Assembly (NCBI GenBank): GCA_036630325.1
Contig: CP142736.1
Coordinates: forward strand, 310,001 to 374,000
Length of the DNA: 64,000 nucleotides
Origin: Vairimorpha necatrix
Lineage: Eukaryota
Direction of reading: 5' to 3'
The position numbers and the translations under genes were made by a program. How positions within the stretch are numbered: position 1 is the first letter of the stretch; each line of letters starts with the position of its first letter. Below, one piece after another: positions 6,684 through 59,344 of the stretch. The notes beneath the pieces were generated by a model, which did no database searches, had not been told where the DNA came from, and was given only the letters and a program-made list of their open reading frames with translations.

Positions 6684-6954
6684 TGTGATTTACATGGCTA
6701 CATCAAAAGGATAGATGTCATATATATCACGTGTCATTCATATCCAAGACATGTCCAACGAATCGTATCGCCTGTTAAGATACGGCACACAAAAAATACA
6801 AACAAACGGAAGTTGTATGATTAGTATTACATTACTAAATATGCCAATGCGTGTATTTAGCAATAAAAAATTCATAAATTAAAAATAAAATAAAAAAAGA
6901 AGTTTCTTTGGAAAAAACGACAGATTATCGAAGCGAAAACTACAACGAAAGGCA
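6684..6954 (+). mobile_element. Diverged remnant of the solo-LTR family found at 57054 and 58973 (right end not defined)
   Basis: Starts TGTGATTTACATGGCTACATCA (cf. TGTGATGTACATTACTACATCA). Contains CAAACAAACGGAAGTTGTATG...GCCAATG and AAATTAAAAATAAA in the same order as those copies. Confidence 0.6.
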
Positions 6955-7262
6955 GTCAATTTTTTTCTATAAAAGTAGTGCAATCCAAAGGAGCTACCTC
7001 CGAATAAAAAATCTACTAAATACAATTTTATAGTAATTTTATGGGCAAGCTGGGCATCTTGGTTTAGTTTCCGAGGTATTGACCGAAAGTTAGCCGTTTC
7101 TTGGTCAAGGATTATAAGGGAATTGATCATTGTTCCTGCCATGATATATTACGACAGGGCTGAAAACGGATAAAGTTAATTTTTGAGTAGACTGGTCTAA
7201 ATAAACTATTCCAAAAAGGCAAATTGATAAATTAAAATAATTTGTGGTAATAATTATACCCA

Positions 7263-8025
7263 GTAAGTAAGAGTTGGGCAGAACCTTTACATAGAGACCA
7301 GAGAAATCAGGTGTAAACTTTATCCAACTGATACTGAGAGGTATTTACTCACTTAACTACCCACCAAATAACTTGCCAGGGTGGCTTGCTCCGTTGTATT
7401 CATTGCTATTCCCAACAGGAGAACTTTTTCTATTTATACCTCAAGTCGCGTTCATAGTGACCTCACAGGGATTTACTCTACGTTTATGGGTACCTGAAAC
7501 CAGAGGATAGACCTCGTCGTACTAACTTTAGTCCCTACAATCATATGTATCGAGCAAACATGCTTTCTGTCGTTACATGGCAGGCTGATATTAAATTATA
7601 CTGCGTTAACCACCAGTCTTTTACTTGTTTTGGCCACCGTGTTAAGAATCTTGGGATGGGTCCACGAGACCTTCCATTGCTCTATTTTGCCTAGTCTCTT
7701 AGTTGGCTCTGGGATTCACTCTAGAGTTCACCATCTATGGGCTCCAACTGCGCCGTATCCATCAGATACTTTTATGTGTCATTGAGTCACCACAAGAGTG
7801 ATGCTGCTTTTCGGCCTTAAAGTGCGTTTATACACTAGATGCTAATCTTCTTATGGCTGACAGCACAAGTTTTATTGAATCAACTTAATATTTATCGTGG
7901 ACATTTACATCATCTGAGTGGTCCAAACTGCATCATATATAGTAAAAACAATTTTTGTGTCACTGCGATTCGACCAGCCATTGCTAAGCGGAAGTATCGC
8001 CTCTAAACACTTAGGTAAGAGCACC
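7263..8025 (-). ncRNA. tRNA-headed ~765-nt structured non-coding element (SINE or large ncRNA), copy 1
   Basis: Colinear similarity over the whole length to 12968-13736; degenerate tRNA-like head at ~7955-8025; no ORF. Confidence 0.7.
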
Positions 8026-11000
8026 TTGTAAAGTAGTCAAAATAATGACACTATTATTAAACATAGCAACAAAAATATATTATCTTTTTACATAAACTAC
8101 TTAGAAAGCTTTTTTGAAAATCACAAAATCGCAATGATACATGACGTATAACTCTCCCTTAGTTATTGTGAGAGACTACAAAAAAATGGGATGTCTTGGG
8201 GATCTCTACCACGTAGCATATAATTATAGAATATAAAGTTGCACTTTGTGGCGTTAAATGTGGGATGTACGATGATGAAAGTTTTCTCGCTTTCACATGT
8301 CTTTTTAATGATTGTATCACTTGTGAATTATTCTAGCCAAAAAATAATATTGGCATTTATAGCGTAAATCCGAAATACTATTTGGAGTGTGTTCGCGTTT
8401 TTTTTTTCAGTTCGAAAAAAAATATTTAAATAGAGCGCGACCATTGCAAAAAAAAACACTAAAAAATATCAAATAATTTTAAAAGGAAGATGTGGTATCG
8501 ATTACTACATTAATTTATTTTTTATCCAATAAATGCTTTTTCTAGAAAATATTAGTTATATAATATTTGTTTTTATTTTACTTCTAAGGGCAACGGGGAT
8601 GAGAATGACGAGAGAACAATTACGTGTAACCAAAAAATATTAAAAAATATTTATGTAACGTATGTTGCAGAGGGAGTATCATAGAATGCTTTGTGCAATT
8701 CAGAGACCTCCCTGGGGCAACACCATAAAAAATGCAATTAAACGTAAAAATGATCCTTGAGCGGACTACCAATAAATTTTTTTACATGTCGACTGTTATA
8801 TAAATGTTTTTTTTATAATAACACATATTTTGCTTATATAAATCCATTTTTTAAAAAAAAATTACAGAAAAAATTATACATGAAGTCATAGATCAATTTT
8901 GACGCAAAATATTTATAATGTCATGGTAAGTGTGTATATTATTTCTACAACAGCCAATTTTCTCATTTTTATAAAATTTGAATTTGCTAGAAAATTTTTG
9001 TTGTAAATAATTTTTACAAAAAAAAAGAAGTCTACACATAAGAGGATATGAAGAGAAAAAGGTATAAAAATAGATAAAGAAACAAAAAGACTGTAAAAAA
9101 AAATTTTATAAATTTCTATTAATGTACTTCCTCGCTAGGAAGTTTTTTTCGAAACCAACGGAAGTATGAAAGTGCAAAAAACATCCAGAATCTACTAAGA
9201 TATAGTAAAAAAATTGACGCAAATTACAATATCTTCTAAGGAAAAAAAATTCACTGAACAAAATTGAATTGAATAAACATATGTAAGTTGAATATCTCTA
9301 TACAAAAAACACCTCCGAAAAATATTAATTAATATAGTTATGTTGGTAAAAGGCGGCGTATAGACCATAAAAATATCGCTATAAATGAAAAATATTTTTT
9401 TTTATCTTAGGTCTCGACATATACTCCAATAAATTAGTCTAGGGTTGTTACTAAAGTATCATAAAGACACGTGGCAAATGAATGTGGTATTGAGAAGGTC
9501 AAAGGACAGAGAAATAAGAAAAATGTCAATTTAATTAGTAAATAAGAAGATTGCAAACCTATAAGCATATATTAAGGGTAGATGAGCCGATAAGTATATT
9601 TTACGAAGTTTTTGAAAGGATATATAAGCTCATCTAAGTTAGTCATAAGTCAATTTTTAACTAGAGAATTTTTTATTTTTTAAAATGTATAAAGTTTATA
9701 CCTACAACGTCGATAAAAATCGATGATGTTGTTAAAGTGTGATTTTTGGCTAAGATAGGACTAAACATTGCACAAATTTATAAAGACTTGTTTGTTTTTT
9801 CGAGAAATAATCTAAAAATTCCTTTATGTTAATAAAAATGACTTTACACAAAGACCTGTGGGCTAAATATGCTCCCAGGAAGGGGGGTAAACAATTTTTG
9901 TCCTAAAATTTTATTTTAACACGTGTTTAGTGTCATTCGGGTTGGTAATTATAGTGCTGTGCTTAAACACCTTTTTAAAGTATGTTTGTAAGAAAAAGAG
10001 TCAATTCTTCGTGAATTAGTGTTTGAGAACCTCCCGCCGAAAAGAGGTAGAAGAAGAATAACGTCAACAAATTCTAACCAGATTGAATTTTTTATCTGAC
10101 TACGATCTATCAATTCACGCAACTTACCTTTATGTACAATATCATAGCAAAAAAATATTCGAATTTTTCGAATTTTAATTATTACTCGACTTTTTTTTAT
10201 TTTAATGTTATCAAACCAGCAAACAATATATTAAAATATAGTGACGAAGAATGGTCTTCTGTTTTAGTATAAAATACTTTATTGTAAGTTATAGTGTTTT
10301 TATGAAAAACTGTTCATTTGAGCGTTGAAAGAAAGCAGTGACAAAAAATCTTTATTTAGCCGAGACATGTCAAATATAGATGAGGCACAAAGCGAGCCCA
10401 TGTTACTACAAGATAAAACGTGCTCTTTAATGAATAAAATGCTTTTGAATTTGGTAGGTATTTAAATTATATACTTTCTCGCATACAAATATAAAAGGTT
10501 AGAGAGCTACATCAATGAAAACTTGAAGATCATAGTGTGCTAACATCTTTTTTAATTTATTAAATTGAGTCTAGAGCAAAAAAAAAATCTGTTCAAAATA
10601 TACTGTCAGATAATGCATATAAATTAATGTATAAACATTCAATAAGACTGAACAAAACTAGGTAAAAAGTCCAAAATTAGTTTATAAACGTTACAAAAAG
10701 AGTTTATATTTCTGACGTTGAATTTTTATAAAATACGAAATAATAGAAGAGTCGTCGACACATCTAAAAAATTGAGGCTCATATTCAGAATCTAACCTTG
10801 AAAGGACTTAAAAAATATTTCTACAGTGTAAAGACATACAATCTACGGGTTTAAATAATTTTTAGGGAAAGATTAAGAAAAAATATTTTAACAAAAAATG
10901 GAATGAGGGGTTTGTGTTAATAACCACCTTGTTATAAAATTGAAATGAATATGTATATATATATATTTATTCTTTTATAATATACTATTAACCTCAAAAT

Positions 11001-11221
11001 ATAAAATTATAATCTCTTAAGTATTTGGAGATAAAAACATGAAATACTACTTTTTCTTCGTTTTGATAAAAATACACGTTTACATATTAAAATTTTTTCT
11101 ATAATATTTATATATATTGCACCTCTATATTGTATTTAATTTAGAAAGATGTTATATTTAAAGAATTAGTATATTTTTTACAGCACATTACAGATTAAAA
11201 GAACAAAAAAACTTAGATACT

Positions 11222-12088
11222 TTAATTCAAACCTAAAGGATTACGAAGCAAGTAAGCCAATGAACAGCCCGCCGCGATAGAGGTAGGATAATAAGAAGGT
11301 ATAACCCCTTGATTACTAACATAGTCATAATTACTAATCGGGTTGTCTTCTTGCATGAACACGGAAAGTTCTTCAATCATTGCCATGTTGTCTTGCCTGG
11401 TGATAATACTATCATCTTGAGGGGTCATGTTGTTTTCGTCTTGACTTATATTATTTTGATAGCCAATCGTCGTGCTAATTTCTTGGGTATTAGTATCTTC
11501 ACTTTCATTTATGTTAAAACTTTTCTGCAAATCATCAATGTTTTTCAAATCGTCTTTTGACATAAATTGTACGTAACGTATTATTTTGTCGTCGTGGTTA
11601 CCTATAGGTTTAACTTTATCAATATAGTGTTGTATCTTAAATTTATCAATTTTTATACCATTAAAGTCCATGCATATTAAAGCTTCTAATATCCCTTGTG
11701 TATATAATGCAATATAATATATTTCAAAGTCAACACGTTGTTCTTTTGCGACGAGACCCTCCGCTCTTACTATTCCATTTATCAATTTCGCCCAGTAATG
11801 TTCATATTTCAGGTCTTCGCGAGTAATTGTAATAATTTCAATTTTGTTAGTCTTCGGGGGGAAATATGTACGCTTTAAAGGAAACTTAATTCGATCCAAA
11901 ATAGTCTCAAAAAGAATCCTTGCTATTTTTTCCACATCAAAATTCATGTGAGAATCTCTACTGATATGTCCCCCAAAATTGTATAGCTCTTTAGCACATT
12001 CATTAATTGTTTTCATGTTATTTTTAGCTACCGGATTAGCTATAGACTTTTTGATATTCATAACGAAGACTAAAAACCCCAAAAACAT
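11222..12088 (-). CDS. Hypothetical protein, possible signal peptide
   Basis: 288-aa ORF, CCC motif before ATG (gcccataaaATG), hydrophobic N-terminus; no family recognised. Confidence 0.75.
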   Translation of the reverse strand: MFLGFLVFVMNIKKSIANPVAKNNMKTINECAKELYNFGGHISRDSHMNFDVEKIARILFETILDRIKFPLKRTYFPPKTNKIEIITITREDLKYEHYWAKLINGIVRAEGLVAKEQRVDFEIYYIALYTQGILEALICMDFNGIKIDKFKIQHYIDKVKPIGNHDDKIIRYVQFMSKDDLKNIDDLQKSFNINESEDTNTQEISTTIGYQNNISQDENNMTPQDDSIITRQDNMAMIEELSVFMQEDNPISNYDYVSNQGVIPSYYPTSIAAGCSLAYLLRNPLGLN

Positions 12089-12967
12089 TTTATGGGCTAC
12101 TAAATAGATGGCTATATATAGAAAAACACAAATTTTTAATTTATTTAATCAAATAAATATTCACTGAAATTTTAAAGTTTACAATAAATATTAAAATTCT
12201 CCAGTGTTTTTTGCACCTTTTGATTATTCTTATGTATTTTTATATTAAAACAAACAAACAAAAAAATTCGCACATTGAAATGATGTTATATTCGACATTT
12301 TTCTTTTTTTTTAAATATTAATCTTTTAATTAAAAAACTTAACAAACAACAATAAATCTTTACAAAACACAAAGGTTTATGATGCAATTTATAATTAATT
12401 ATAAATCGCACATTTTTTTTGATTAAACATTTGGCTAAAGTTTGATTATCTAAAAATTTTGATGATGGGGTTTTTTATTTATTCTTTTTTCAAAAACAAA
12501 GAAAGAAATTTTGACAAGAGAAGAATTAGAAATCTCCTACAAAAAAGAATTCTATATACTAGAACAAAACAAAATGTTCATTAAATAATTTTTAAAAATA
12601 ATTACAGGCTTAAGATAGATTTTTGATCTAAGAAAAAAAGAAGTACCAAGAAAATATAATTTTGATCGGTCTTTTACATTAGAAGAAATTAGTTAAAAGG
12701 CCCACTTAGAGCGTTTTTTTTTGACTATAAATATTTTTTATAAAAACCCCCTTTGAACGTCCAAACGGCAAAAAAAAAGAAAATATAAATTTAATAATTT
12801 TGTGATTTAATCACCTATAAAGTCCCTTTATAACATATACTAATGGCCAGTAATCAGTTCTATGCTTGCGACTTTCTGCAATCACAATTTTTTACTATAC
12901 ACCAAATACATTCATTGGTATTAGTTGGGCAGTGGTTGAAATTATTACAAAATCTATTTTTTTCTTT

Positions 12968-13736
12968 GCAAGTATGAGGTAAGAGAACCCTTACATATGA
13001 CTAAGGAAATTTTAGTGTGATCCTCATCTAACTGGTACTGATTGATTCTTACTCGCAAAACCCCCTCCACATAACTTGCCGGTGCAGCAAGCACTGCCCT
13101 TTCCATTGAACTTTAGCTCCAGGAGAAGACTTTCCATTTATACCTCAAATCGCGTTCAGAGTGACCTCACAGCGGATATACTTAACGGCATGGTTATCTA
13201 TAACCCGAGGAGAGACATCATCGTACTGACTCAAAGGTCCCTACAATCATCTGTATTGCACACACGGCTCCTTACACGACCACATCACCAGCCCAGCGTT
13301 TTTATTGGGCTGCGTTGATCACCAGTCTCCCACTAGTTTCGGCCACCGTGTTACAGAATCATGTAGGATAGGGTCCACGAGACCTTCTATTGCCATACTT
13401 CGTCTACTCTTAGTTAGCTCTAGGATCACACTCTAGAATGCACCAGCCATGGACCTTAACTACGCCGTACCCATTAGATTCTTTTATGTATCATTTAGTC
13501 ACCACAAGGGGGATACTTTTTTTTAGCCTTGGGGTGCGTTTCTACTCTAGATGCTAATCCCCTTGCGGCTTGATACACACAAGTTTCATTGAATTAACTC
13601 AATGATTGTCGTGGACATTTTGTCATCTGAGTTGTTAACTGCATCATAGAAAGTAGAAACAATTTTGGTGCCACTGGGAATCGAACCCAGCCATTGCTTA
13701 AAAAGCATTTTCTACGGCCACTGTGCTAAGAACACC
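12968..13736 (-). ncRNA. tRNA-headed ~765-nt structured non-coding element (SINE or large ncRNA), copy 2
   Basis: Head 13666-13736 has A box TAGCACAGTGG, perfect T-arm CTGGG-TTCGATT-CCCAG and acceptor-like GGTGTT/GGCACC-A. The ~690-nt body is shared with copy 1; an A-rich stretch follows the 3' end. Confidence 0.75.
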
Positions 13737-14259
13737 TGTTACTACTCTTCATACAAACCAGAATAATCTATTAATTTAGTAGTTATCCTGTAATATACGA
13801 ATAATTATTAATCATTATTATCGTAGAAGCTTCGGATCTGCCTCATGTTTGAAATTGCTCAATATTTAAAACAAATAGATTTTACCTCAAGTAAGATGGA
13901 AGTAAGAGAAAAAAAATAACCTTATCGACAATTATGATTCCATATTTTTTACGTCGATAAGTCTCTTTTCGAGCTTTTAAATTGTTCTAAAATCTATAAA
14001 GTTCGTTTTTTTTTATCCTCCATTGTCCCCGAAAAATAAAATTTTTGTATAATGTCTTAGGTAAAAATTGCAAAAAAATTTCTATATTTGAAATTTAAAC
14101 TATAAAAAGTTGAAAAAAAATCTTATTCATTTTATAACAATACCAAACATATCTTACTTGTAATGTAGTTTTAAATGAAATTTCGAATCTACAAATTCTT
14201 CTTTTAAAAAAAAAAATGTAGGTACGTTCTTAAAATATATTTAACTTATACATTTATTT

Positions 14260-15174
14260 CTATGCCATTCTATGACGCCCTGTTATATATTCCCATATCC
14301 TTCTAAATATCCCTTTCTTACTCTCTCCTCTCATAAATTTTTCATATCTCCTTAATTTTTTCTCATCATACCTATGTCTCTCAATATATTCTAAGGGTAT
14401 CTCTGACGCTTTACTTTTCTCACTCATACTCTTCTGAAATTTAAATGGTTTATATTTGACTTTACACTTTATTAAGTCCATTACGTCTCTTACTTGTCTA
14501 TTAAATGGATACAGTCTTTCTTTTATATCCATTTTTTCTTCATACTCGTTCTTCAATCCTTTTAATTGTTTTTGGTACCAAATGTAGTCAATAAAAGAAT
14601 GATGATGCCAGAAGACTGGATCATTTGGACTGAACATTTGTGTCATGTCTCCGCCCAGATTGGAATGTACCAGTGCATGTGGGACTAGTTCGAGTATATC
14701 TCTGAATTCCGAGTAAGTACCTTTTTTATTAACAAGTCTTTTTATATCAACATCAGTATAAAATGGAGCGAAAGATGTGTTTCTTACTAGACAATGAGGA
14801 TAAGGGAATGTTACTTGGTAACATTCGCTTATTCCCCAGTATTCGTCTTTAAAGATGGAAGATTTACTTGGGTCGTGTGCGTCTACTGACCAGTCCCAGT
14901 AAGGAATTGCCATTGATGGATCATTAGTAAGCATTTGTAAGATTGACTCGACGTGTAGAAGAAGCATCCTGTGCCAAGGAAGGAATCTACCATTCTTGTG
15001 GGCGTACATGTCCAGATCTACATGGATCTGAGATATTTTCTCCAGATATCCTTTGTCCTTGAATAAATTGAAAGCCTTTTTGTATTTGTTCCATTCTTCT
15101 TTAGACATGTCTCTTATTTCTTTTCTTATTGCCATATTAGCAAATAAGATTTTTAAGATAAAAAAAATTTTCAT
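14260..15174 (-). CDS. Tyrosinase / type-3 copper phenoloxidase with signal peptide
   Basis: CuA IH..AH..FLPWHR, PYWDW, CuB PHALVH..GG.M..SPNDPVFWHHHSFID; hydrophobic N-terminus. Confidence 0.92.
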   Translation of the reverse strand: MKIFFILKILFANMAIRKEIRDMSKEEWNKYKKAFNLFKDKGYLEKISQIHVDLDMYAHKNGRFLPWHRMLLLHVESILQMLTNDPSMAIPYWDWSVDAHDPSKSSIFKDEYWGISECYQVTFPYPHCLVRNTSFAPFYTDVDIKRLVNKKGTYSEFRDILELVPHALVHSNLGGDMTQMFSPNDPVFWHHHSFIDYIWYQKQLKGLKNEYEEKMDIKERLYPFNRQVRDVMDLIKCKVKYKPFKFQKSMSEKSKASEIPLEYIERHRYDEKKLRRYEKFMRGESKKGIFRRIWEYITGRHRMA

Positions 15175-22859: not shown

Positions 22860-24577
22860 TTAATTATGCTGCTCAAGTTTTATTTTAGTCCTCGTGGAAT
22901 ACTGAAGTGATATACTCCCTATAATAAACCACAGGACTGTATAAAGCCACATTAAAAAGATACACCACCACATTCCTATTATAAATGTATCATTAGCATA
23001 AATAAACTCTTCTCCTGGTACTGAGCCCTGATTACTGTAAAATTCTACACCACTAAACTGATTTTGTATTAAAGCTGTAAACGCGTAATAAACTGGACTT
23101 ATAAAAATCATCCATCTCAACCAAGCAGGTATAGCATTTGTACTCCCAAATGCTCCACTATAAATAGTAAAAAACAATATACAAGTCCCACCAATAATCT
23201 GCGCAATATTCTGACTAGGACTTAATGAACTTATTGCTAATCCGAAAATTATAGAAAAATTTATTAAACTTGCGTAAATTATTAAACATATAAAAAATCT
23301 ACCTGCACCAGAATTAAGTCCTATAATCCAATATAAACAAGATAAATAAGAAATTTCATATATTAAATTAAAAGGTAACTCAGAAATATATTTAGATAAA
23401 AATGAAGTAAATGCGGAATACATTCCTGATCTTCTTTCTCTAATAATAACACGCTTTTCATCAGGGAAAACATTGAAAATTGGTGCACAAATTCCAAAAA
23501 GACAATTTAAAATTAAAAATGTTAAAGAACCTTTTCGGCTTGGTATTTCTAAGACAGTATTGTTCATTCTTAAATAAGCTAAGCCGAAAATTAATAAAAA
23601 TATTAATTTTTGTAAAATCTTGATTTTTAAATATGTCTTCTTTCTCCAATATTCTAAAATGTTTCTTTTTATTAATAAAGGTAAGATTACTTTATTATTA
23701 ATATTCTGCTTATTTGTAAGTGGTTTCGTTATATTTGGATTATGATTTATATTATGACTCATCCATACGTCATTAATATAATTTATTTTATTGTAACAAT
23801 TATTCATATTTTGATCATTTCTAGTGTCTAAACTTATAGTATCTAAAAAGAAATCTGTCGGGTTTGTATTTCTTGGTAAATTGTAACCACATTCTTTAAA
23901 AAAGTCTATACATTTTTCAAATGATCCTTCGTAGATCATTTTCCCTTGGGATAATAAAATGATTCTCTGAAAATATTGTATTTGATTATAAGAAGGCTGA
24001 TGAATTGTGACAATAATAGTTTTACCTATTTTAGCCAATTTAATTAATAATTCCAAAATATTTAAAGCATTAAATGAATCTAATCCACTTGTAGGTTCAT
24101 CTAAGAATAAAATACTAGGATTTCCTAATAATTCGAACCCATACTTAATCTCTTCTTTTCACCACCACTAAGTTTAGAAATTAAATCATTTTTAGATTTT
24201 ACTAGTCCCAATATATTGATGACGTCATCAACAGACAAATCAGAATTTTTTATTAATTTGCAGAAATTTAGAGTTTCAAAAACTGTCTGGTTTTCAAAAG
24301 AAAGGAATTCTTGTTCTACGTAGCCCATGATTTGTGGCCAATTTTGATCTCTAGGGTAAGAATTTAATAAAATTTCTCCTGATAATTTCATGTTTAAGGG
24401 TAGACGACCTGCTAAAGCGTTTAGTAAAGTTGTTTTGCCTGCTCCACTTGGGCCCATAAGAGCAGTCATTGAAGATGGGCCTACTATGCCTGAGATATTT
24501 TGGAGTAAATGTTTTTTTCCACTGTATAAATTGAGATTTCTCCAAATTAATTCATTTTCCTCTGTTGAGAAATTCAT
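22860..24577 (-). CDS. ABCG (White-type) half transporter; 1-bp frameshift at ~24138-24140
   Basis: Walker A GPSGAGKTT and LSGGEKKR in one frame; GFELLGNPSILFLDEPTSGLDS, TIHQPS and the ABC2 membrane domain in the next. Confidence 0.9.
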
Positions 24578-32780: not shown

Positions 32781-33056
32781 TCCTACAACACCACCTTAGG
32801 TGCTCTAGTAGCAGATAAGTATGGAATCTGTGACTCGCAGATTAAGCACATACTATCAAAAGTAGACAACAGGCAGATCAGGAACTACACCAGGCTTCGG
32901 TGTAATTTAGTCAGATGGTCTTCTGCTTTGGCTAATGCCAACAGAATCCCTCCTTTTTATAGGACTCATTGTTTCCTATGTGAGGGAGAATGAGAAGACC
33001 TTGAACACTTCTTGTTAGACTGTCCGACGCTCTCTAACACAAGATCTCTATATGAG
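32781..33056 (+). repeat. 276-bp near-identical copy of the LINE ORF2 3' region (37873-38148)
   Basis: Direct repeat with about 6 substitutions, one creating a TGA. Confidence 0.95.
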
Positions 33057-36000
33057 GATAAAATACTGGAAAAAAAAATGGGGTTTACCAAACGCAAAAA
33101 AAAGGAGGAAGAAACTTGCGAGATTGAGGCCGACTTATCGACCTCTGGAGTACAAGAAAGTGTTAATTCACTAGTATTGGAAGGCTACAAACCAGAATGT
33201 GAAGTTAGCAGCTTCCGCAAGGCTGCTATTCACACAGACCAAGAATTGATAAAATTCTGGTCACGAACAGAGACTTTATTCAACAGAATAAAGATAGAAG
33301 AAGGCAGAAATGCCAACCAAAGGTACTGTGGGAGAGCTGGGCCGATGGCTAGCCTTGCTTCCTATTGTAAGAGCTCACATGGAGTGACAAGTATTCATCA
33401 GGAGTACTTAGATGCCATCTGTGAAGAGCTCAATGAACAGAGATTCAAGCTTAAAAACTTGAAGAAGCAGCACGAGATTGAGATTTCCGTAATGAGAAAC
33501 CAACTCAACACACAAATTGATGCCCTAAAGGCTTCAAATGAAAGATTAGAGCAGAGAATTGACATGATTCTCACTGCAAAAAAGGAGAGTGTGAAGAACC
33601 AATCACAAAAAAAGCTGATCGTACTGATCAAAAAAAGGAAAAGGAGAAGTTTGGTGTCTTCGCTAAAGCTCAAGATAAAGAGCAAATAAAGGTTACGGGT
33701 AAAAGGATCCCATCATCCAATACCATTAATGTGTTTTTACGGAAGGTAACCGCTGCCGTAAAAGGAAACAGGAAATTGTTGAAGAAAAATATTCTTCTAA
33801 CAGAAAAGACGGAGAATGACTGGACAATCATTCTTAAAAATTGTGATATGAAACCAAAGGTTTCAAAAAAAGCTGATGCCTCAAAAACAGCAGATGCCAA
33901 TAGGTTTGCCCCATTCCTAGAAGGTATAAAAAAGAACTTCAACTGTGATACGAAACAGTTGAAAGTACCCGCTTCAAGTTCTAAAACTTGTAAAAAAATA
34001 CTGAAAGATGATTTGTTACTGTCATCTATAAAAGGTTGGGCGAAGTCGAAATCTATGACTGAGCGCAAATCCAAGATGAAGAAAACATCTTTACCAAAGG
34101 CACCTTCTTCTCACATTACGAGGAAGAAACCAACAAATTGGATAGATAAACTATCCAGAGAAGAGTTGCTAGACCTAGCAATAAACGGAAAGAGGCTCAA
34201 AGACTGCAAATACAAAATTGTGGTCGCTCATGGTTTCCCCGAGGGGAACACATTATCAGGGAGACCTGGGCCAAATTAATGGGCATAGAGGAAGAGAACA
34301 TTCCCCTAGTAAAAGACATTGAAGGCGAGGGCAGAATCTTTCTCATTAGAGATGAATTCTGCTTTCAAGCTGCAGAAGCTCTTGAGAACGCTTCAGAAAA
34401 TGTAAGAGTATTAGTTGCCGAAAACGAAGTAGGCAATTATATCTCTAGGAACAGATCAGCTTTGACGAAAATATTCTCCGATCTTCGTCAAAAATGGAGG
34501 AAGTATGTGCCTGTCGATAAGGCAGTAAAAGTTATAAAAAACGGTCTATCTGACAAGCCTACAGTAAGCCATGAAGAGTTCTTTCTATCCGAGTTAAACT
34601 TTGAGCATCTCGGGAAAGACAGGAAAGTTGATAGTAAACATCACAATGAACAGTGATAAAAATGCTATTATTAAAAGATTTTTATTAAATAATATATATT
34701 TTAATAAAAAACAAGTTATACGGCTTCTTAGCTGTACTAAAATTAATTGTCTACCCAACAATTCACCAAAAGTTAGTAACTTTACTAATAAAAGTAATGG
34801 ATGTAAACTGAGATTTTAATCTCATGTCTATATCATGGTAAAAGCTAGAATGCTGAGAACAAGCATTCAAAAGGGGTTGTGTCTAGTTAAAACAATGGCC
34901 AACCATATCAATGGAGAAGAACTCCGACAGCAGTTAGACGGAGTGTCAACGGGATTATCGGACTCTCTTATCTATACCAGAAAGCATCGCAGAAAAGATG
35001 CTAACTTCACCTTCTGCGTAGTCAGAAGGTCAAGAAAAAAAGAAATTTCTGAAGCCATGGATATACTTGGCCTAGAAATATTAAAAGAAATTCCAACTCG
35101 TGATAGGGTGGAGAATAAAAGAAGATGCAAGTCCATAGAGAAGGCCAAGCTCTATAGTCTTAACATCAACCATTTCTACGGAAAGAAGGAGGACTTGGAA
35201 ATCCTCCTTAAAGTAGAAAAGCCAACAGTCTTGTGTCTTCAAGAAACTTGGATGAAATCCTTAGGTTCTACGAGACTAGAAAAGTATGTGGTGGAGACAC
35301 CAGCCATAGGAAAGAATCGGCCGGGTCTAATGACTCTAGTCAGAAAAGACGGGGCAGTAAGATGTTCTAAAAAGGGGGATGACGACAATATTCTACAAAC
35401 TGTCGTTGAATTCAAAACTAGTACGGGATTGACAAAGGTCTTAATAATCAATGTTTACGTTCCACAAGAGAGAGAGAGTTAAAGGCCGAAACTCTAAGTA
35501 AAGTAATTAACTTTCATAGTATTTAGAAGGATAAAAGAAACTACAAGGAGATTGTAGTTATGGGGATATGAATACAGTGATTCTTCCCTCAAAAAGAAGC
35601 TTGCTATCGCAGGGTTAAGCCCCGCAATAAACTATAACAGATTACCAGGGACAAGAATCCTGAGTGATGTACAAGTCTCTAAAAGACGTATTGATACGAT
35701 ATTTAGGGTCTTAATTCAGGACAACGAGAAAGTAACAATCTCTCGAAGATGGACGGTAAGTGATCATCTCTTGCTGAAGAGAATGATATCTCTTCCTTCT
35801 CCAGTGAGAGAACGGCCATTTGCCTACAATAGGAAGAAACTTGAGCATCCAGGAATGGAAGCTAAGCTTTCAAGAAAGTTGAATGAAAAAACATTCACAC
35901 AAGATGAACTCTCTAGAGTTTTAAAAGACGTTTGTATATCCTCCAAGATATACAGTAAAGTGGGGACATTCAAAGGGCTGCCCATCAGATGGAGACACGT

Positions 36001-38670
36001 AAATGTCTTTAAAAGTTTTAGATATGCTACTAAGCGTATGCTAACGAATAGGTCCGTAACGTCTGTGCATAGGTACATGTTACTGAAGGATAAAATTAAG
36101 GCAACAAAGATAAAAGTTCGGAAAGATCGAGCCAAACTTTGGGCCTTCAAGGGCATTGAGCTCTATAAAAGTAACAGATCCAGAGACTTCTGGAAATGGT
36201 TGAAAAGTTCTTCTAACGTCACTGTTAGATTAGACAATGTTTGCTTGAAAGATGTATCAGGCATGGCTCATAACGAGCATAAAAAGAAGTTAGAGATAGC
36301 CAATGACTTTTACGCTAATCTAGCTAACTCAATTTCAGACGTTGAAAATGTCTATCAAAAAAATATCGAAAGGGATACTCCAGAGAACATCACTATGGAG
36401 GATTTACTGAGAGCCACTAATAACTGTGTCAACAACAAGGCAGCTGGGCCGGATGAGATTCCAACCAAGCTATACAAGGTACTACTTAAACCTAGTTTAG
36501 TAGATAAAAAACTACCTCTGTTCCTTGTGAACGAGTTCAACAGAATACTAACAGGAGACAGCCCTCCTGTTAGCTGGAGTGCTGCTGACATGATTTGCCT
36601 CCATAAAAAAGGAGATGTGTCAGATCTCAACAACTATAGAGGAATTGCGCTAATTAACACAATAAGCAAAATTTACTTAAAAATAGTAAACGACAGACTT
36701 ACACAGTTTGTTAAAGAAAAGAACATTCTTTCTCCTTTCCAAGCCGGATTTAGAGCAGGAGAAGAATGTATGAATCAGATTGCAACCTTGCTGGAGGTGG
36801 TTAAAAGAAGAGAATTTCGAAGTCAACAAACATTTCTATGTTTTATTGACTTTGAAAAAGCTTACGACAATGTTAGCCATGAGCTACTATTTAATAAGCT
36901 AGAAAGGTATAGTATTCCAAGATATCTTATAAACACATTGAAAGATATCTATGGAAATACTAAGATGAGAATCCGTATATCGGAGACACAAGTAGTGGAT
37001 ATCTCTACAAAAAAGGTGTGAGACAGGGGTGCCCCTGTTCTCCTACGCTGTTCAATCTATTCATAAATGATATTTTTGACGGCATGACAGGATTGAGCGT
37101 TCCTCGCTCAAATATAAGCCTGCCCGGACGGATGTTTGCAGATGACATCGTAGTTCTAGGCATTACTCTTGCTGATTTGAAACACAAAGTATGTCAAGTC
37201 AGCAGATGGGCAGTTGAGAATCGTATGGAGATCAACTGTGACAAAAGTGGTATCTTAGTATGGGATGCCAGTAATATATCCGAGTCTGTAGATGTCGCTA
37301 TCAGGACTGACTTTGGAAAAATCGGTGAAGTCGCCGAATACAGGTATTTGGGTGTTCTTATAAAAAGATCTACTTTAGAAGAACACCTAGTAAGAGATGG
37401 AGCCTTCAGAGGCAAAAAAGCTTTAGAAGTCTTAAAACCAAAGCTTCTAAATAAAGGAATCAATATAGCTTTTAAAGGTATATTAATAAAAAATGTGTTT
37501 TTTCCCACTAATGTACGGAAGTGAATTATGGGGGATGTCTAGTATAAGGTCTGGTGGGATCAATAGAATCCTAAGAAAAGCGATCCGAATGAAATTTCGA
37601 ACCAAGATAGTGCCATTAGATAGGATAATGGACGAACTTTGTAGAATAGAGTTCACATACAGGCGGCCCTAAGTAGATTTAGGGCATTAAAGAAGTGGAA
37701 ACACAATAAAACCATTATCTCGGAATTCATTTACCAACCTCCGAGGGAAAGGAAAACAACGTGGAGTTCGAGGACTAGGCGTTGGTGTAAGAGATATATC
37801 GGGAACGATTATGAAAGCATTGCCTACATTACAGGCAAGAACAAGATTTTAGAGGTACTTAAGGCAAGGGGTTCCTACAACATCACCTTGGGTGCTCTAG
37901 TAGCAGATAAGTATGGAATCTGTGACTCGCAGATTAAGCACATACTATCAAAAGTAAACAACAGGCAGATCAGGAACTACACCAGGCTTCGGTGTAATTT
38001 AGTCAGATGGTCTTCTGCTTTGGCTAATGCCAACAGAATTTCTCCTTTTTATAGGACTCATTGTTTCCTATGTGAGGGAGAACGAGAAGACCTTGAACAC
38101 TTCTTGTTAGACTGTCCGACGCTCTCTAACACAAGATCTCTATATGAGAATAGAATATCTGAGTTGAGATCTTCAACTCAAACAAAAGAGGAGCTAATAA
38201 AGATGATTATTGGCAACATCAATGGCATCAAAGCTTCTTTTGATAAAAGGAAGTCTCTACTTGTAAGAGTAGAGTTCTTAGACAAGATGATTGTACAACG
38301 ATATATCGTTATACGAGAAAAGGAAAGGCTTGTAAGCCAGAACAGATCTAGAGAAATCTAGAAGAAAAAAAAAACACACTTTTACCTGGGGGAGGTATGG
38401 CAAGCTGCTGGTGCCGTAGCATTTACGTTGAACTAGTTAGGTTCTTAACTGACGAGTAGGTCAGACGTGTTATTCTCTTAGAACCCTGCTGAACGCAGGT
38501 CACAGATAGGAATGTTTGTGGTTCTAATCCTAAGGGATATTTTTTCTCCTACAAGCAAGGCCTTTATGGTATGCTGGTGTGTATCACAAGTTATTGGCTG
38601 TTGAAGTTTTTATTTGCTGGGTGGCTTTTCTTTAATAACAATAAAAGTTTTTTAGTTTTTTTTTTTTTTT
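33057..38670 (+). mobile_element. Near full-length non-LTR retrotransposon (ORF1 + APE-RT-CCHC ORF2), frameshifted
   Basis: Coiled-coil ORF1 from ATG 33078. APE SLNIN..LCLQETW..INVYVP..SDH. RT KAAGPDEI, NYRGIAL, QAGFR, FIDFEKAYD, RQGCPCSP, MFADD, YLG. C-terminal CFLC..E..EHFLLDC. 3' UTR with AATAAA and T-rich tail. Confidence 0.95.
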
Positions 38671-39133
38671 TCTCTACTTGTAAGAGTAGAGTTCTTAGAC
38701 AAGATGATTGTACAACGATATATCGTTATACGAGAAAAGGAAAGGCTTGTAAGCCAGAACAGATCTAGAGAAATCTAGAAAAAAAAAAAAACACACTTTT
38801 ACCTGGGGGAGGTATGGCAAGCTGCTGGTGCCGTAGCATTTACGTTGAACTAGTTAGGTTCTTAACTGACGAGTGGGTTAGACTTGTTATTCTCTTAGAA
38901 ACCTGCTGGACGCAGGTCACAGATAGGAATGTTTGTGGTTCTAATCCTAAGGGATATTTTTTTCTCCTACAAGCAAGGCCTTTATGGTATGCTGGTGTGT
39001 ATCACAAGTTATTGGCTGTTGAAGTTTTTATTTGCAGGGGGCTTTTCTTTTATAACAATAAAAGAATTTTAGTTTTTTTTTTAATTTTCTAGGTGGCTTT
39101 TCTTTAATAACAATAAAAGTTTTTTAGTTTTTT
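38671..39133 (+). repeat. Tandem extra copies of the LINE 3' end
   Basis: 38671-39082 repeats 38254-38670; 39092-39133 repeats the last ~40 bp; each ends in a T run. Confidence 0.93.
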
Positions 39134-39149
39134 ATATTATAGACATTTA

Positions 39150-43425: not shown

Positions 43426-43942
43426 CTAGCGTATGCTTTCCCGTTTTTGAAAACGGGATCTAAGTGTTTAGTTTGCTAATATGTCTTATATCCTTAAATT
43501 TTGTTGAGTTTCCATTTTTGATAACTGAATTTAAAAAGAAAACATGATTTTGAAAAATACTTTTTAGTAACATATAAGGAGTAAACTTAATCTAAAAACA
43601 TTTAATAGTTATAATGAGATAATTTTGGGAACTTTTAAGCTCAATTTATGACACTTATATTCATTTTCTTTTTTTGGCAATTATTTTTAAAATTTTTCTA
43701 GAAGGGTTAAATAAATTCTAAAAAACGATTCTGACGATATTTTGGAACTGAGTTTTACAAAACAAAGAATTGCAATGAAAATGCATTTACATACAGTACA
43801 CGCACCTATGATAGTCAAAATTCTTCATTGAGTTTATATTTTCTATTGCAATATCACAATAAGCTATAATAAGAAGTTTAGATTTTACAAAACCACAAAA
43901 AAGAGGGGTAAAAAATTAAATAAAATTCTTTTATATATATGA
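43426..43942 (-). mobile_element. Non-autonomous Helitron, copy 1
   Basis: Minus strand 5' TCATATATATAAAAG, 3' CCCGTTTT..AAAACGGG hairpin + CTAG followed by T. Confidence 0.9.
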
Positions 43943-44462
43943 CTAGCGTATGCTTTCCCGTTTTGAAAACGGGATCGAAATGTTTAGTTTTTTAATATGT
44001 CTTTGATCCTTGAATTTTTTTGAGTTTACATTTTGGGATGATCGAATTTTATAGGATGAAATCATCTTTTTCAAAAATACTTTTTAGTAGCATATTAGGA
44101 GTAAAGTTGAGTTAAAAACACTTTTGAGTCATATTGAAATAATTTCGGGAACTTCTAAACTCAATTTTTGACACTTATATTCAATTTTTTTTGGTTATTG
44201 TTTTTGTGAATTTTTTCTAGAAGGGTTAAATAAATTCTAAAAAACGATTCTGACGATATTTTGGAACTGAGTTTCACTTAAATAATAATCAAAATTAAAA
44301 AGTATTAACTAATAACATACACACTTAGAATAGTCAAATTAAAGCAATAAATCTATATATGATATTTAAATAACATAGAAAGCTTAAAATATATAGTGTG
44401 GAAATTTAAAATTGACAAAAAAGAAGGGTAAAAAATTAAATAAAATTCTTTTATATATATGA
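43943..44462 (-). mobile_element. Non-autonomous Helitron, copy 2 (head-to-tail with copy 1)
   Basis: Same termini, preceded by A on the minus strand; diverged internally from copy 1. Confidence 0.9.
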
Positions 44463-44466
44463 TCTA

Positions 44467-44829
44467 GGCTAAAGGTGTTAAAAGACCCCCCCCCTCTGAG
44501 GGTGTTCACTTTGTTTTTTTGAACCCAAAAAACGAAGTGCAAAATAAAGGAGGAGCGGGAAGATGACAAAAATTACTAAGCACTCATGACATTAAAAACA
44601 AGAAATAAACATACTTTAATGTACATAATTATATTTTAATTTGAGAATGTACATTCATATAAATTTATAAGCATTTTTTACCCTTATGATTTATTGGAAT
44701 TGGGGACCAAAACGCCCCCCTCTGAGGGTGTTCATTTTATAATTTTAAACCCCCCAAAACGAAGTGCAAAATAAAGGAGAAGCAATCATTAGCACCCTAA
44801 ATACTTGCATCTTTAGACAGTAAAAATAC

Positions 44830-44868
<39 letters not shown>

Positions 44869-45317
44869 ATACGTAATTTAATTTAAAAAAAAAAATATAA
44901 CCATAAAACTATATAATTCCGAATAACATAACATATTTTATATTAAATTTTTTGATTTAATAATCTGTATAGATTGTTGAACATTTATTTAAATATTCTT
45001 ATATGCATAATATTTATAATTTTAATTGTTGGTATTACAAAGTAGGGTTTGAAGAAAATCCCTTTTTATAATAAACCAGCAATTAAAAAAAATTGAAAAA
45101 ATAAGGAGGGAGAAAAAATACAATACTATAAATAATTATTATAACTATATTTAAAATTAATTTTCGTATTAAAGCATCTATTTATTTGTTATTTTTAATG
45201 TCATAAGTGCTTAGTAATTTTTGTCATCTTCCTGCTCCTCCTTTATTTTGCACTTCGTTTTTGGGGTTTGAAAAAATAAAGTGAACACCCCCAGGGGGTC
45301 TTTTGGATCCCAGCTCC
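44467..45317. mobile_element. MITE with ~150-bp TIRs, Merlin-like
   Basis: 44467-44620 is inverted at ~45165-45317. GG...CC ends; 8-bp TSD TGGATCTA/TAGATCTA (left copy split by the Helitrons). Extra partial TIR at ~44696-44783; internal (TA)n. Confidence 0.8.
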
Positions 45318-47195: not shown

Positions 47196-48457
47196 ATATT
47201 TATAATTACCTATGAATTTTAACCAATTTCTCAAGCAATTGGAATATTTTATGTTTTTAGTAATTTCCAATTATTATTTTTTAGTATAAAAAGTACATTT
47301 AAAAATTATAAAAATTTTTTATTTATTTTCAATGATACTACAAAATTACCATTAAAGGCGATTAAGACGAGTTAGATATGGATATAATAACTATAAAAAA
47401 TAATTTTAAAATAATTCATAAAGTTCTTGTTGATCAACGAGACGAAAATTGCATCATATTTTTAAATCCTGAAAAATGAAAATGATTTTAAAGGATAAAA
47501 AATGTCTTGTTTTGTAATAACATACAAAAAAATATTTTGAATCATTAGCAGACAGATCAGATTTTTGCTGTTAATTTCTTGCGTTTCTAAGACGCGCCGC
47601 TACTAAATCTGATGTGAATAATGTAAATTCCGATTTGATATGTGTAGGAAATTTTGTTAAATCCTGGCCATGGGCGGATGACCTTGGCTGTAAAAGCTAT
47701 GTCCAAAATTTATGTGAAAAACAAAAACTTTAAACTACCTCTAGAATCTACAGAGTGGCAAAGATTATATTTTAGTGTTAAATCTTGTAAGCTTACTTTT
47801 TAAAGGAATTTAGAGCTATCATGATTTTGTTAACATACACTTAATTTTTGAAAAATAATTTCGGATAAAATTTTTCATTTGACATGTTTTGGAGACATGT
47901 CATGTTGAATAGAAAAAATTTAACTAATTATAAAAAGGTAAAATCATGTTAAAATTATTGTTCGAAGATAATTATTACATTGATATATTAGCATAGTACA
48001 AAGGCAGATTTTAAATGCAAATACATTTTAATTTTTATACAAAATTCAACGAAAAAAAACTATTTAATGTACAGCTTTTAAACTTATTATAAAGCAGATC
48101 CTACCATAAAAACTAAATCATAAATTTAATAAGTTTACTTTTCAGATTCAATGTCAATATCAAAAAGATTTTGTGAAATTAATAATGCAAAACATAAAAT
48201 ATTGTTTAATGGTAGAAAGTTATATGATTTTTCTTTTTATGTCTATCACACAGCATAGTTTTTTATGTATTAGCAATTTAAATTTATTAATAAAGGAGTT
48301 GACACCTTTCAAAAATAATTAAGTCGTATTACTTCTATTGAATGCAATTTTTTAAAACATATTTTTATTAAAATTGAACTATAATCACTAATATTTGCAA
48401 AAAAAAACGTTTTTATCATGATACTATAATATAAATAATTTTTTTACAATCTACCCC

Positions 48458-50371
48458 ATGATCAAACAGCAATTTTTCATACCGACAATTGCATTCTTTT
48501 GTATGAAAAATTTTATTAAAACTATTGAAATTGCCAAAGAGACCAGTGAAATGATTGACCAAACTCTGGATACATATTCTAGCAATTTTGTAAAAAAGCA
48601 TGATAATATTAATGAGTTGAAATATATAGATCATTCAGGAATTTGTTTTGAAAAAGATATTGAAAAAACTAATAATATTTCTGTATCTAAAATATTAAAT
48701 GATCTGCAAAACGAAAATAGCATATTTGGAAGCCCGTATGAGAACCTAAACGATAAAAAAACGAATAATATTGATTTTTATGTCCTTAAATATGTTTGTA
48801 ATAAGTTTTTTCATTTATTACTGTTGGAAAAGCCCTTTTATAGTAGGTTGCCCAAATTTTATCTTGCTAGAGAAAACACTACCATTTTTCCTGAAGAAAT
48901 GGAGGTAATTTTTTATAACGCAGTTAAAAATCATGCTTGCGGTGAAGAGTTACTTTCATCTGTCAAAGACTCCGCTTATGAATATTTAAACCCTTTTGTA
49001 ATTGAAAGTTTAGAACTTATTTACATATTATCTAGTAATGAGTTTCAAAAATTATTTCTGAAACCATTTGAGCTTGATCGAATATGGTCAGATATTGCCA
49101 AATGTTTTGATTTAAAATATTCAACTAATGAAAAAGGTAAATTAGAAACGATGTTCGAAAGCATAAAGTACAAGAAAATTCTGAATAAACTGTTTAGATT
49201 AGTTAATAAGTCCAATGATAAATTAAATTTTAGCAATAAAACTCGAGATAAGAAGCCCAATTTTTTTAAACATTTGTTTGCCACAGCTTATGGATTAGCT
49301 TTATTGCCCTGTGCGAGTCTGGTGCCATTAGAGAATAATTCACTGCCTAGCGTAAAAAATGTTAATTATGATGCTAACAATGAAATTGAATCGGTATCTC
49401 AACACTCTGTAGTGATAAATGACAATTTTAATGAAATTATTCATAATACAAAATACGGGTACAACAGAGAACTAGAATTACCAATTGATATGCGAGATGA
49501 AAATGAGGAGAAAGAATACATAATTGGAGAAAATGAATATAGTATGACTGAAAGTGAGGACGGTAAAACTTCTAAGACGATGAAAAAATCCGACAAGGAA
49601 ACTACAGGTGATTTGAATGCGATCAGTTCAACAATAGAAAATTCTTTTGATAAACCTAGCCCAGAAGAAGTTTCGTCTACTCATTACTTTTTATCTACCA
49701 ACAAAAAGATTACGAACGAGGAGGATTTGACTGTTGTTGATAATACACATGCTTCTTTATCACCTTATATTGAAGCTAATAGTAAGACTAATAATAATTT
49801 TAACATAGATCTGCCTTTTACAATTACAACCGAAGTAAACAAAATGGTTAAAAATGAAAAAAATTATATTGACCTAAAAGAATCAAAAACAAAAATGCCG
49901 GCTAAAGGAAAAGAAAGGAGCAAAAGAGCACCGAAAGGATATAGATATAAATTCAAATTTAAACCTAAATTTAAACCCAGTAAACCAGCAAAAACTGGTG
50001 GAAGCAACCTTAAGCCCTCTAAAAACGGAGGGAAAAGTGAAGGTATCCCCAAACCAACGAAAAACGGAGGGAAAAGTGAAAGTAAACCCTCTAAAGGTGG
50101 AAAAGCTGGTAAAGGTCTTTTTAAGAAGGGAGGTAAGAAATTAAAAAATCCTTTTAAAATGCCCGATTTCAATTTAAAAGAATTTTTCAGTAGAATATTT
50201 GAACTAATAAAGTCTGGTTGGTATATAGTGCTACCAATAATAGGTATCATAATTTCTATTATTGGCGCACTATGTCGTTTCTTTGGTAAAAAACTTTTCA
50301 AATGTTGCTGTTGCAAGAAGAAAAAATCTGACGAGGATAAAGAAAAACTTATACCAAATGAGAAAAAATAA
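48458..50371 (+). CDS. Type I membrane/surface protein, paralog A
   Basis: Signal-like N-terminus, domain shared with 60352 ORF, Ser/Thr-rich then Lys/Gly/Pro-rich region, TM, KCCCCKKKK tail; AATCTACCCCATG start. Confidence 0.85.
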   Translation: MIKQQFFIPTIAFFCMKNFIKTIEIAKETSEMIDQTLDTYSSNFVKKHDNINELKYIDHSGICFEKDIEKTNNISVSKILNDLQNENSIFGSPYENLNDKKTNNIDFYVLKYVCNKFFHLLLLEKPFYSRLPKFYLARENTTIFPEEMEVIFYNAVKNHACGEELLSSVKDSAYEYLNPFVIESLELIYILSSNEFQKLFLKPFELDRIWSDIAKCFDLKYSTNEKGKLETMFESIKYKKILNKLFRLVNKSNDKLNFSNKTRDKKPNFFKHLFATAYGLALLPCASLVPLENNSLPSVKNVNYDANNEIESVSQHSVVINDNFNEIIHNTKYGYNRELELPIDMRDENEEKEYIIGENEYSMTESEDGKTSKTMKKSDKETTGDLNAISSTIENSFDKPSPEEVSSTHYFLSTNKKITNEEDLTVVDNTHASLSPYIEANSKTNNNFNIDLPFTITTEVNKMVKNEKNYIDLKESKTKMPAKGKERSKRAPKGYRYKFKFKPKFKPSKPAKTGGSNLKPSKNGGKSEGIPKPTKNGGKSESKPSKGGKAGKGLFKKGGKKLKNPFKMPDFNLKEFFSRIFELIKSGWYIVLPIIGIIISIIGALCRFFGKKLFKCCCCKKKKSDEDKEKLIPNEKK

Positions 50372-57053: not shown

Positions 57054-57402
57054 TGTCATGTATCCGGGGTACATGGCCATTTTTATAATATCTCTCTAAA
57101 TAGTTTTTAATGTAAATATGTTTATTGATGGTTTTAGTCTCGCTCTTGGATTCTATATATTCCATACCCTTCACAGACAGACTTTCTTTTATAGTTTATT
57201 TTTAATTTAAAGATTCTTGTCAACACTAAACTACAAACATTGGCGTACTTACGAATGTAGTAACGACCATGCAACTTTCGTTTGTTTGTTTGTTTGTGTG
57301 ACTCATCTTGACATGTAACTGAAATGCTTGACATGTCTTTGGACATCAGCGACAGATGACATATTTGACATCTGTTCATGTGATGTAGCAATGTACATCA
57401 CA
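57054..57402 (-). mobile_element. Solo LTR, family 1
   Basis: TGT...ACA ends, perfect 5-bp TSD TATGC, homologous to 58973-59344. Confidence 0.9.
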
Positions 57403-57581
57403 TATGCATTTACGATAAATATTTATCTTCTCTAAACGTGCTGGGTGGAGAAGGGATAATAGTAGAAATCGACGAGTCAAAAATAGGAAAAACTTAAATA
57501 TAAATGAAATAAATTAGTGAAAGGCTTCTGGTGTTTTGGTATGGTCGAACGAACCATAGAACGTAGAATAATAATGGTACA

Positions 57582-57890
57582 TGTCAGGCGACGAACCTAC
57601 GCCGACAATAAGAATCCCCAAGTGTGAATGATTCTTATTTAAAATGAATGTGAAAGATGATATTAATGACAGGTGGTTATTTAATATTGGGCGTGAGCAT
57701 TTAGAGAGTTACTTCTATCGCTGCAATTTACTCTTTTCGGAATAGACCGTCATAATGATCTATTCCAAATATTTCCTATTTATTTATTTTCCAGCCCTTA
57801 CCCGTCATCATAAGTTAAGGACACAATCCAAATAAATCTATTATTGATACTCCGTCTAATATTTTAGATCAGACCTCGTGTCTGATCACA
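57582..57890. mobile_element. Solo LTR, family 2
   Basis: TGTCAG...CTGATCACA ends, perfect 5-bp TSD GTACA; Merlin reading frame resumes after removal. Confidence 0.85.
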
Positions 57891-58972: not shown

Positions 58973-59344
58973 TGTGATGTACATTACTACATCACATAAG
59001 CAGTTGTCAATACTAGCAGCTGTCAAAACTATCACATGTCGAAACTATCAACCGGCGAACATTTCAAGTTGCATGTCAAGATGAGTCACACAAACAAACG
59101 AAAGTTGCATGGTCGTTACTACATTCGTAAGTACGCCAATGTTTGTAGTTTAGTGTTGACAACAATCTTTAAATTAAAAATAAACTATAAAAGAAATATT
59201 GCTGAGAAGGGGACGCGGAAATGATTAGAGAAGATTCATTAAACAATCAGAACAAATATCATAATAAACTTAATAAAACTATTAACATTAACAATTATTT
59301 AGAACAATATTACAAAAATGGCCATGTACCCCGGATACATGACA
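58973..59344 (+). mobile_element. Solo LTR, family 1
   Basis: TGTGATGTA...TACATGACA, TSD TTAAG/ATAAG; inverted relative to the 57054 copy. Confidence 0.88.

Follow-up and report, generated by a model that had tools for sequence, protein, structure and literature searches.

Within a 64-kb stretch of Vairimorpha necatrix DNA (the whole of what was analysed here, referred to as the window), two GC-rich segments of about 0.77 kb can be aligned with each other from end to end, and the better preserved of them begins like a tRNA. What kind of element is this repeat: a retroposon, duplicated DNA, the two long terminal repeats (LTRs) of a single retroelement, or a gene for a non-coding RNA? Judging from the sequence, we favor with moderate confidence the view that both copies, termed A and B, are ancient and now inactive remains of a non-autonomous retroposon of the Pol III type with a tRNA-derived head, which would place them in the long (0.5-0.9 kb) size class of fungal SINEs. 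The window in which they lie is AT-rich (GC 0.294) and carries compact, intron-poor eukaryotic genes, including those for the RNA polymerase second-largest subunit, a WD40 protein, a tyrosinase, SPT16, HSP70, an Mn/Fe superoxide dismutase and V-ATPase subunit C.

Two diverged copies of one discrete element

Copy B, the better preserved one, occupies positions 12968-13736 of the minus strand (769 nt) and the more decayed copy A positions 7263-8025 of the same strand (763 nt), such that both have the same orientation and their starts are 5.7 kb apart. Blastn aligns them at 74.4% identity over 741 columns (E 5e-115), and an end-to-end MAFFT alignment contains 549 matches, 212 mismatches and 24 gap columns, that is, 72% identity. 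An earlier inspection of the letters alone (the sequence-only reading) had described two copies at precisely these places, alignable over their entire length, roughly 70% identical by eye and richer in GC than their flanks; blastn, MAFFT and base composition agree with it in each of these respects. When the 64-kb window was searched sensitively, both by blastn with word size 7 and by nhmmer with a profile built from the two copies, only A and B were matched and no third copy or fragment was found.

The limits of the repeat are sharp on both sides. At the low-coordinate edge, identity per 10 columns rises from 2-5 to 7-8 matches at position 7265 of A and 12970 of B, and on the high-coordinate side it drops back beyond approximately 8029 in A and 13740 in B. 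The flanks of the two copies match each other in 19 of 60 and 26 of 78 columns, which is the chance level, and no common sequence was detected among the 4.9-kb interval separating A from B and the 5.8-kb segments that precede A and follow B. We also looked next to each copy for decayed paralogues of the genes neighboring the other one (tyrosinase, ORF288, WD40 and ORF87) and found none. With unrelated flanks and no neighboring paralogues, the repeat is thus a discrete element and not a piece of a larger segmental duplication, which we reject.

Composition sets the copies apart as well. Their GC content is 0.415 (A) and 0.443 (B) as opposed to 0.27 in the DNA between them and 0.294 in the window as a whole, and the GC-richest 700-nt windows of the entire 64 kb fall in copy B. 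Where a strong base in one copy faces a weak base in the other, the G or C is held by B 92 times and by A 70 times; if most of these mismatches were losses, arithmetic on the counts would put the ancestral GC content at up to about 53%. The divergence is also distributed more patchily than uniform decay would leave it. Identity in 30-column bins has a variance of 15.6 versus 6.1, a value reached in none of 2000 shuffles, and there are 10 runs of at least 12 identical columns where 3.3 are expected. Constraint could be the cause, or the pattern may only stem from patches that align poorly, for instance columns 440-490 of the minus-strand alignment.

A tRNA-derived head at one end

The tRNA-like head lies on the minus strand, and the element therefore begins at its high coordinate, namely at 13736 in B and at 8025 in A. 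In copy B the head spans 70 nt (13667-13736, minus strand), retains six of seven acceptor pairs and displays an anticodon-like loop, TTTTTAA, which, as judged by eye, would fit an origin from a lysine tRNA with the anticodon UUU. Its A box (13718-13728) and its B box (13677-13687) are 30 nt apart and both fit the microsporidian tRNA consensus quoted in the portion of PMC5499648 that deals with it, and the B box is embedded in a perfect T arm of 17 nt (13674-13690). The pattern of AGTGG followed, after 25 to 45 nt, by the B box occurs once in the 64-kb window, in copy B, and in 0 of 100 shuffles. The corresponding head of copy A (7957-8025, minus strand) is degenerate, with two mismatches in the A box and a 2-nt deletion plus two substitutions in the T arm, and so the tRNA-type arrangement of boxes that is present in B is absent from A. 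The A box, perfect T arm with B box and acceptor pairing that the sequence-only reading had described in B are confirmed; the head of A, which that reading had also called tRNA-like, is broken and finds no Rfam match even at E<=10. The retention of the promoter boxes in B and their loss from A would fit copies of unequal age, or a promoter that was retained longer in B.

We reject the possibility that the head of B is a functional tRNA gene. ARAGORN predicts no tRNA gene anywhere in the 64-kb window; the minimum-energy fold of the B head is no cloverleaf but consists of the T arm and a 5-bp hairpin; and its best Rfam match, to the mascRNA-menRNA model, reaches 18.3 bits where the gathering score is 42.5, with all tRNA-clan matches below 13 bits.

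What makes the head informative with respect to origin is its position. In both copies the homology ends within about 4 nt of the tRNA +1 nucleotide, and this is an end that a transcription start would set and that a random duplication would not. A 5′ boundary at this nucleotide is what an internal Pol III promoter would bring about. As for termination, the B head contains a TTTTT run (13700-13704, minus strand), a potential Pol III terminator, and the aligned place in A has no such run. Runs of at least four T on the sense strand occur at positions 33 and 677 of B and at position 78 of A (TTTTT), none of them common to both copies, although their scarcity is not significant (2 observed versus 2.9 expected, and 1 versus 2.9). 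Since no T run is shared, the ancestor may have had none; given the TTTTT in the head of B and the one 78 nt into A, neither present copy should yield a full-length Pol III transcript.

Neither copy encodes a protein

The absence of a conserved ORF, already noted in the sequence-only reading, survives every comparison that we made. No ORF is common to A and B, and mismatches in the gapless blocks of their alignment show no codon periodicity (10/8/12 over the three codon positions in a block of 142 columns). A six-frame Pfam search of B, with stops read as X, returned no family above its cut-off, the only matches being LIM at 16.8 bits (cut-off 22.9) and PSD1 at 11.2 bits (cut-off 28.5). On the plus strand, open stretches of 90-95 codons are found, which is by estimate about what the composition would give, and the longest open frame of B (90 codons) has no protein with common words in a library of 5.8 billion proteins. 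On these grounds a decayed coding gene is rejected.

A SINE-like retroposon as the favored origin

If the head once served as an internal promoter, the remaining steps would be those of a SINE. An RNA of about 0.77 kb would have been reverse-transcribed and inserted by the endonuclease and reverse transcriptase of a LINE acting in trans, and the copies would have decayed after insertion. A possible source of such a reverse transcriptase is present in the window, 20 kb from the repeat, in the form of a LINE with fragmented ORFs (33078-37524, plus strand) that combines an APE-type endonuclease domain (Exo_endo_phos, 34835-35482) with reverse transcriptase domains (RVT_1, 35783-37021 and 37084-37524). 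The GC content of the repeat (0.41-0.44) is near that of this LINE (0.38-0.40) and far from the 0.27 of its surroundings. Moreover, the tail of B is directly adjoined by an A-rich stretch of 11 nt (12957-12967, minus strand), a candidate retroposition tail that has no counterpart in A.

Nor does the length of the repeat weigh much against this reading. The sequence-only reading had objected that tRNA-derived SINEs are usually shorter; the objection is weak considering the fungal tRNA-derived SINEs recorded in the introduction of PMC5063351, which include MgSINE (472 bp) and mgsr1 (800 bp) of Magnaporthe, Egr1 (700 bp) and EGH24 (900 bp) of powdery mildew, Foxy of Fusarium and AfuSINE2 of Aspergillus. 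According to the results of the same paper, the heads of AfuSINE2 do not fold into a cloverleaf. It is the boundary at +1, the non-coding and (see below) unstructured body, the LINE-like GC content, the LINE 20 kb away, the A-rich stretch after B and a length within the fungal range that together lead us to the SINE-like reading.

Several observations count against it: the two copies seen in the window are neighbors, no target-site duplication exceeds chance, A has no A-rich tail, no likeness to the LINE can be detected, TTTTT runs come early and conservation is patchy. The best flanking duplications of the copies are 8-mers with a P of about 0.11 each, situated 13-29 nt outside the ends of homology, and on account of both their chance-level P and their position we do not count them as target-site duplications; the sequence-only reading had seen none either. 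With a divergence of about 26% between A and B, short target-site duplications may have eroded. The same reading had found no match to the 3′ UTR of the LINE in the window, and this is borne out for the tails and for the whole copies: blastn detects no match between the copies and the LINE, and Smith-Waterman scores against the LINE, its 285-nt repeats and the 417-nt units that follow it are reached by 16-29 of 30 or by 18-52 of 60 shuffles. One of four comparisons between heads and tails yields a signal, the first 13 nt of the A head (8013-8025) matching a 13-mer near the tail of B (12977-12989, both on the minus strand) at 12 of 13 positions, which 7 of 2000 shuffles attain; the remaining three are at chance level. 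A short terminal direct repeat is thus possible.

An unusually long microsporidian SINE family, one of two options that the sequence-only reading had put forward, accordingly remains the best reading as far as the head of B, the end at +1, the non-coding body and the LINE in the window are concerned, whereas membership of the repeat in a SINE family is tentative, the evidence against it being the restriction to two copies in the window, the absence of a target-site duplication and the absence of a LINE tail.

The LINE region itself has a noteworthy layout. It extends from 32781 to 39138, and the LINE is bracketed by direct repeats of 285 nt (32781-33065 and 37873-38157) that are 97% identical. 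These are followed by two tandem units of 417 nt (38254-39138), 98% identical over a 292-nt core, and each unit includes a run of A as well as an 11-mer resembling the B box but for one mismatch. The arrangement resembles LINE 3′ ends that have been repeated in tandem or duplicated in part.

Possible duplication without retroposition

One alternative is that a GC-rich segment, itself immobile, with a tRNA pseudogene at one end by coincidence and perhaps a relic of foreign (for instance host-derived) DNA, was duplicated at the DNA level and dispersed to give A and B, with no retroposition involved. This would account for the presence of only two copies in the 64-kb window, close together and in the same orientation, and equally for the lack of a LINE-like tail and of a target-site duplication above chance. 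A GC content far above the local background, with an ancestor that by the above arithmetic may have been richer still, would also suit a segment of foreign descent, and the part of PMC4202319 devoted to the subject documents that microsporidia and animals have exchanged transposable elements. We nevertheless regard duplication of this kind as rather unlikely. An arbitrary breakpoint would hardly fall within about 4 nt of the tRNA +1 nucleotide in both copies, and, because the flanks and the 4.9-kb interior share nothing, the event would have had to copy exactly the element. Similar DNA was not found in plasmid or phage collections by blastn either. A 17-mer of the repeat has two matches among viral contigs, as chance would give, and a search of the literature, to the extent that its text is accessible, for pieces of the element of 13-14 nt recovered only one chance string, in four unrelated papers.

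The copies as a possible pair of LTRs

Two direct repeats of nearly equal length (763 and 769 nt), in the same orientation and with starts 5.7 kb apart, could alternatively be the LTRs of one ancient, non-autonomous, LARD-like retroelement spanning 7263-13736, the interior of which has decayed. A total of 6.5 kb is typical for LTR elements, and like a LARD or TRIM the putative unit would consist of equal-length direct repeats around a mostly non-coding interior of a few kilobases. The similarity ends there. Visual inspection in both orientations revealed neither TG..CA termini nor a primer-binding site adjoining the candidate 5′ LTR, and no visible polypurine tract precedes the 3′ LTR; the unit is not flanked by a duplication, the best common word being 6 nt long (P 0.67); and the 4.9-kb interior (8026-12967) holds no gag or pol remnant, given that a six-frame Pfam search with stops read as X found no family at E<=1.

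The interior does contain an intact orphan ORF, ORF288 (11222-12088, minus strand; 288 aa), with a hydrophobic N-terminus and no Pfam family. Only 11 clusters of related proteins are detectable. The four members whose names were looked up all come from Vairimorpha necatrix. Three of them, two at 31-34% identity, bear the name "putative SP-containing protein", a label for signal-peptide proteins, and the fourth, a distant relative, is named "pol polyprotein" (P0004, E 2.6e-6). On the strength of this last name we keep a little weight on the LTR explanation, even though none of the eight relatives scanned has a Pfam family above cut-off. The fold predicted for the ORF288 product (mean pLDDT 58.6) was compared with solved structures and had no match at E<=0.001, and together with the lack of a Pfam family this leads us to reject it as a gag-like protein. 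An LTR pair also offers no reason why the repeat should end at tRNA +1, and two LTRs of equal age would not be expected to differ such that both boxes are kept in B and both are lost in A. A whole tRNA-derived module at one end, as in the repeat, is not a known feature of LTRs. Altogether, an LTR pair seems to us quite improbable.

No conserved RNA fold in the repeat

Could A and B instead be paralogues that each encode a non-coding RNA of about 0.77 kb restricted to this lineage, with a functional body and with the tRNA-like module as promoter or as a signal for processing? The high GC content in a background of 0.27-0.29, with B as the GC-richest part of the window, is what such genes might show, as are the patchy conservation with its excess of long identical runs and the perfect A and B boxes of B. 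A tRNA-linked large structured RNA, similar in architecture to bacterial GOLLD RNA, was what the sequence-only reading had offered as its second option. Rfam, which that reading had proposed to consult for tRNA, GOLLD, ROOL and other families, gave no match at gathering scores over the 64-kb window. At E<=10 over positions 6800-14200, the only matches inside the copies were two sub-threshold, tRNA-like ones, both to the head of B.

Folding of the aligned copies points in the same direction. The pairwise alignment has a structure conservation index of 0.49 for the minus (sense) strand and 0.48 for the plus strand. Consensus folds of 200-column windows were scored against 40 column shuffles that preserve conservation, a comparison that has little power with two copies, and yielded minus-strand z values between +0.6 and -2.9 and plus-strand values between -0.2 and -1.9, so that sense is no better than antisense. 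Six of seven minus-strand windows lie between +0.6 and -1.6, and the last one alone, at the 3′ end, stands out with a z of -2.9 and speaks for an RNA gene. The z values for single-sequence folds, -1.3 for the minus and -2.3 for the plus strand, are unremarkable. The GOLLD-like option is thus unsupported, as no Rfam family was found and no fold is conserved beyond column-shuffled controls.

Further points argue against RNA genes of any such kind. With the head of A destroyed and that of B devoid of a tRNA fold, processing by RNase P or RNase Z is unlikely, and TTTTT runs occur early in both copies. Conserved 23-nt motifs of the repeat have no match in metagenome contigs, viral contigs or 185,579 prokaryotic genomes. 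Telomerase RNA, tried as a specific candidate, was discarded since neither copy has a template-like match to any of ten common telomere repeat units. We therefore consider paralogous non-coding RNA genes very unlikely. Just as doubtful in our estimation is a related proposal, that the copies belong to a Pol III gene family specific to Nosematida, whose tRNA-derived module is the promoter of a GC-rich, non-coding RNA about 0.7 kb long. Under this proposal B would be a still or recently competent source gene, its boxes and T arm having remained perfect while the rest diverged, and the conserved blocks of the body would be functional through, for example, protein binding or antisense pairing instead of a global fold.

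Relationship to known systems

Among the systems that we compared, fungal SINEs come closest to the repeat, the comparison being one of descriptions and not of sequences. They are likewise non-coding and 0.5-0.9 kb long, carry A and B boxes in a tRNA-related 5′ part and reside in genomes with LINEs. They differ in being dispersed in tens to hundreds of copies with target-site duplications and defined tails, whereas the repeat has two decayed copies seen in 64 kb, no target-site duplication above chance and a tail-like A-rich stretch at B only.

A tRNA-like module joined to a longer RNA is also a feature of the mascRNA and menRNA precursors (MALAT1 and MEN-beta) and of tRNA-snoRNA and tRNA-miRNA precursors. 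mascRNA occupies the 3′ end of the RNA from which it comes, and its tRNA fold allows RNase P and RNase Z to cleave it; the module of the repeat, in contrast, is at the 5′ end and has no cloverleaf fold. With GOLLD, ROOL and other bacterial large structured RNAs, the repeat has in common only its size and a tRNA-like sequence nearby, and it differs from them in having no Rfam match at gathering scores and no signal of conserved structure, in its eukaryotic host and in the absence of its motif from the prokaryotic genomes searched.

Microsporidian genomes serve as models of extreme reduction, yet some of them carry many mobile elements. We found no microsporidian SINE in the main texts of the literature searched, although supplementary tables may list repeat families: the word "SINE" has no occurrence in the main-text portions of a survey of microsporidian transposable elements (PMC4202319), nor in those of PMC12449221 and PMC10759460. 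If the SINE-like reading is true, the microsporidian mobilome would gain a class that has been missing from it, that of tRNA-headed non-autonomous retroposons, and the repeat would be a marker of LINE activity in trans. It would also represent extra TFIIIC-binding sites in a lineage where, according to the portion of PMC5499648 that covers Nosema and Encephalitozoon, such A and B boxes are otherwise found in tRNA genes only. As two decayed copies, the repeat amounts to a modest annotation result.

Other features of the window

Several further features of the window deserve mention in their own right. On the same strand as the repeat and 523 nt from the head of B lies the gene for a tyrosinase-domain protein (14260-15174, minus strand; 304 aa; Pfam Tyrosinase, E 3.6e-30), an unexpected enzyme for the reduced genome of a parasite. 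An ABC transporter gene (22860-24577, minus strand) is apparently split into an ABC_tran part (24125-24577) and an ABC2_membrane part (22860-23939) with 185 nt between them, which could be due to a frameshift, a pseudogene or a small intron.

Repetitive sequence is not confined to the elements discussed above. Two paralogous ORFs on the plus strand (48429-50371 and 60323-63153), which encode 637 and 933 aa and match no Pfam family, are about 70-72% identical at the DNA level and lie 11.9 kb apart; the second one includes eight tandem units of 33 nt (62607-62945), and a similar 33-nt periodicity is seen in an open-ended ORF at 1-1389 of the minus strand. Nested inverted repeats at 57054-59344, with one pair of arms (57183-57292 and 59087-59196) that is 98% complementary and further arms at 88% and 77%, enclose about 1.8 kb and are possibly a DNA transposon or a large palindrome. 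Finally, an ORF-poor stretch (43438-45298) contains tandem units of about 520 nt (43438-44462) that are 76-85% identical and are adjoined by a 148-nt inverted repeat (44492-44639 and 45151-45298) with 84% complementarity.
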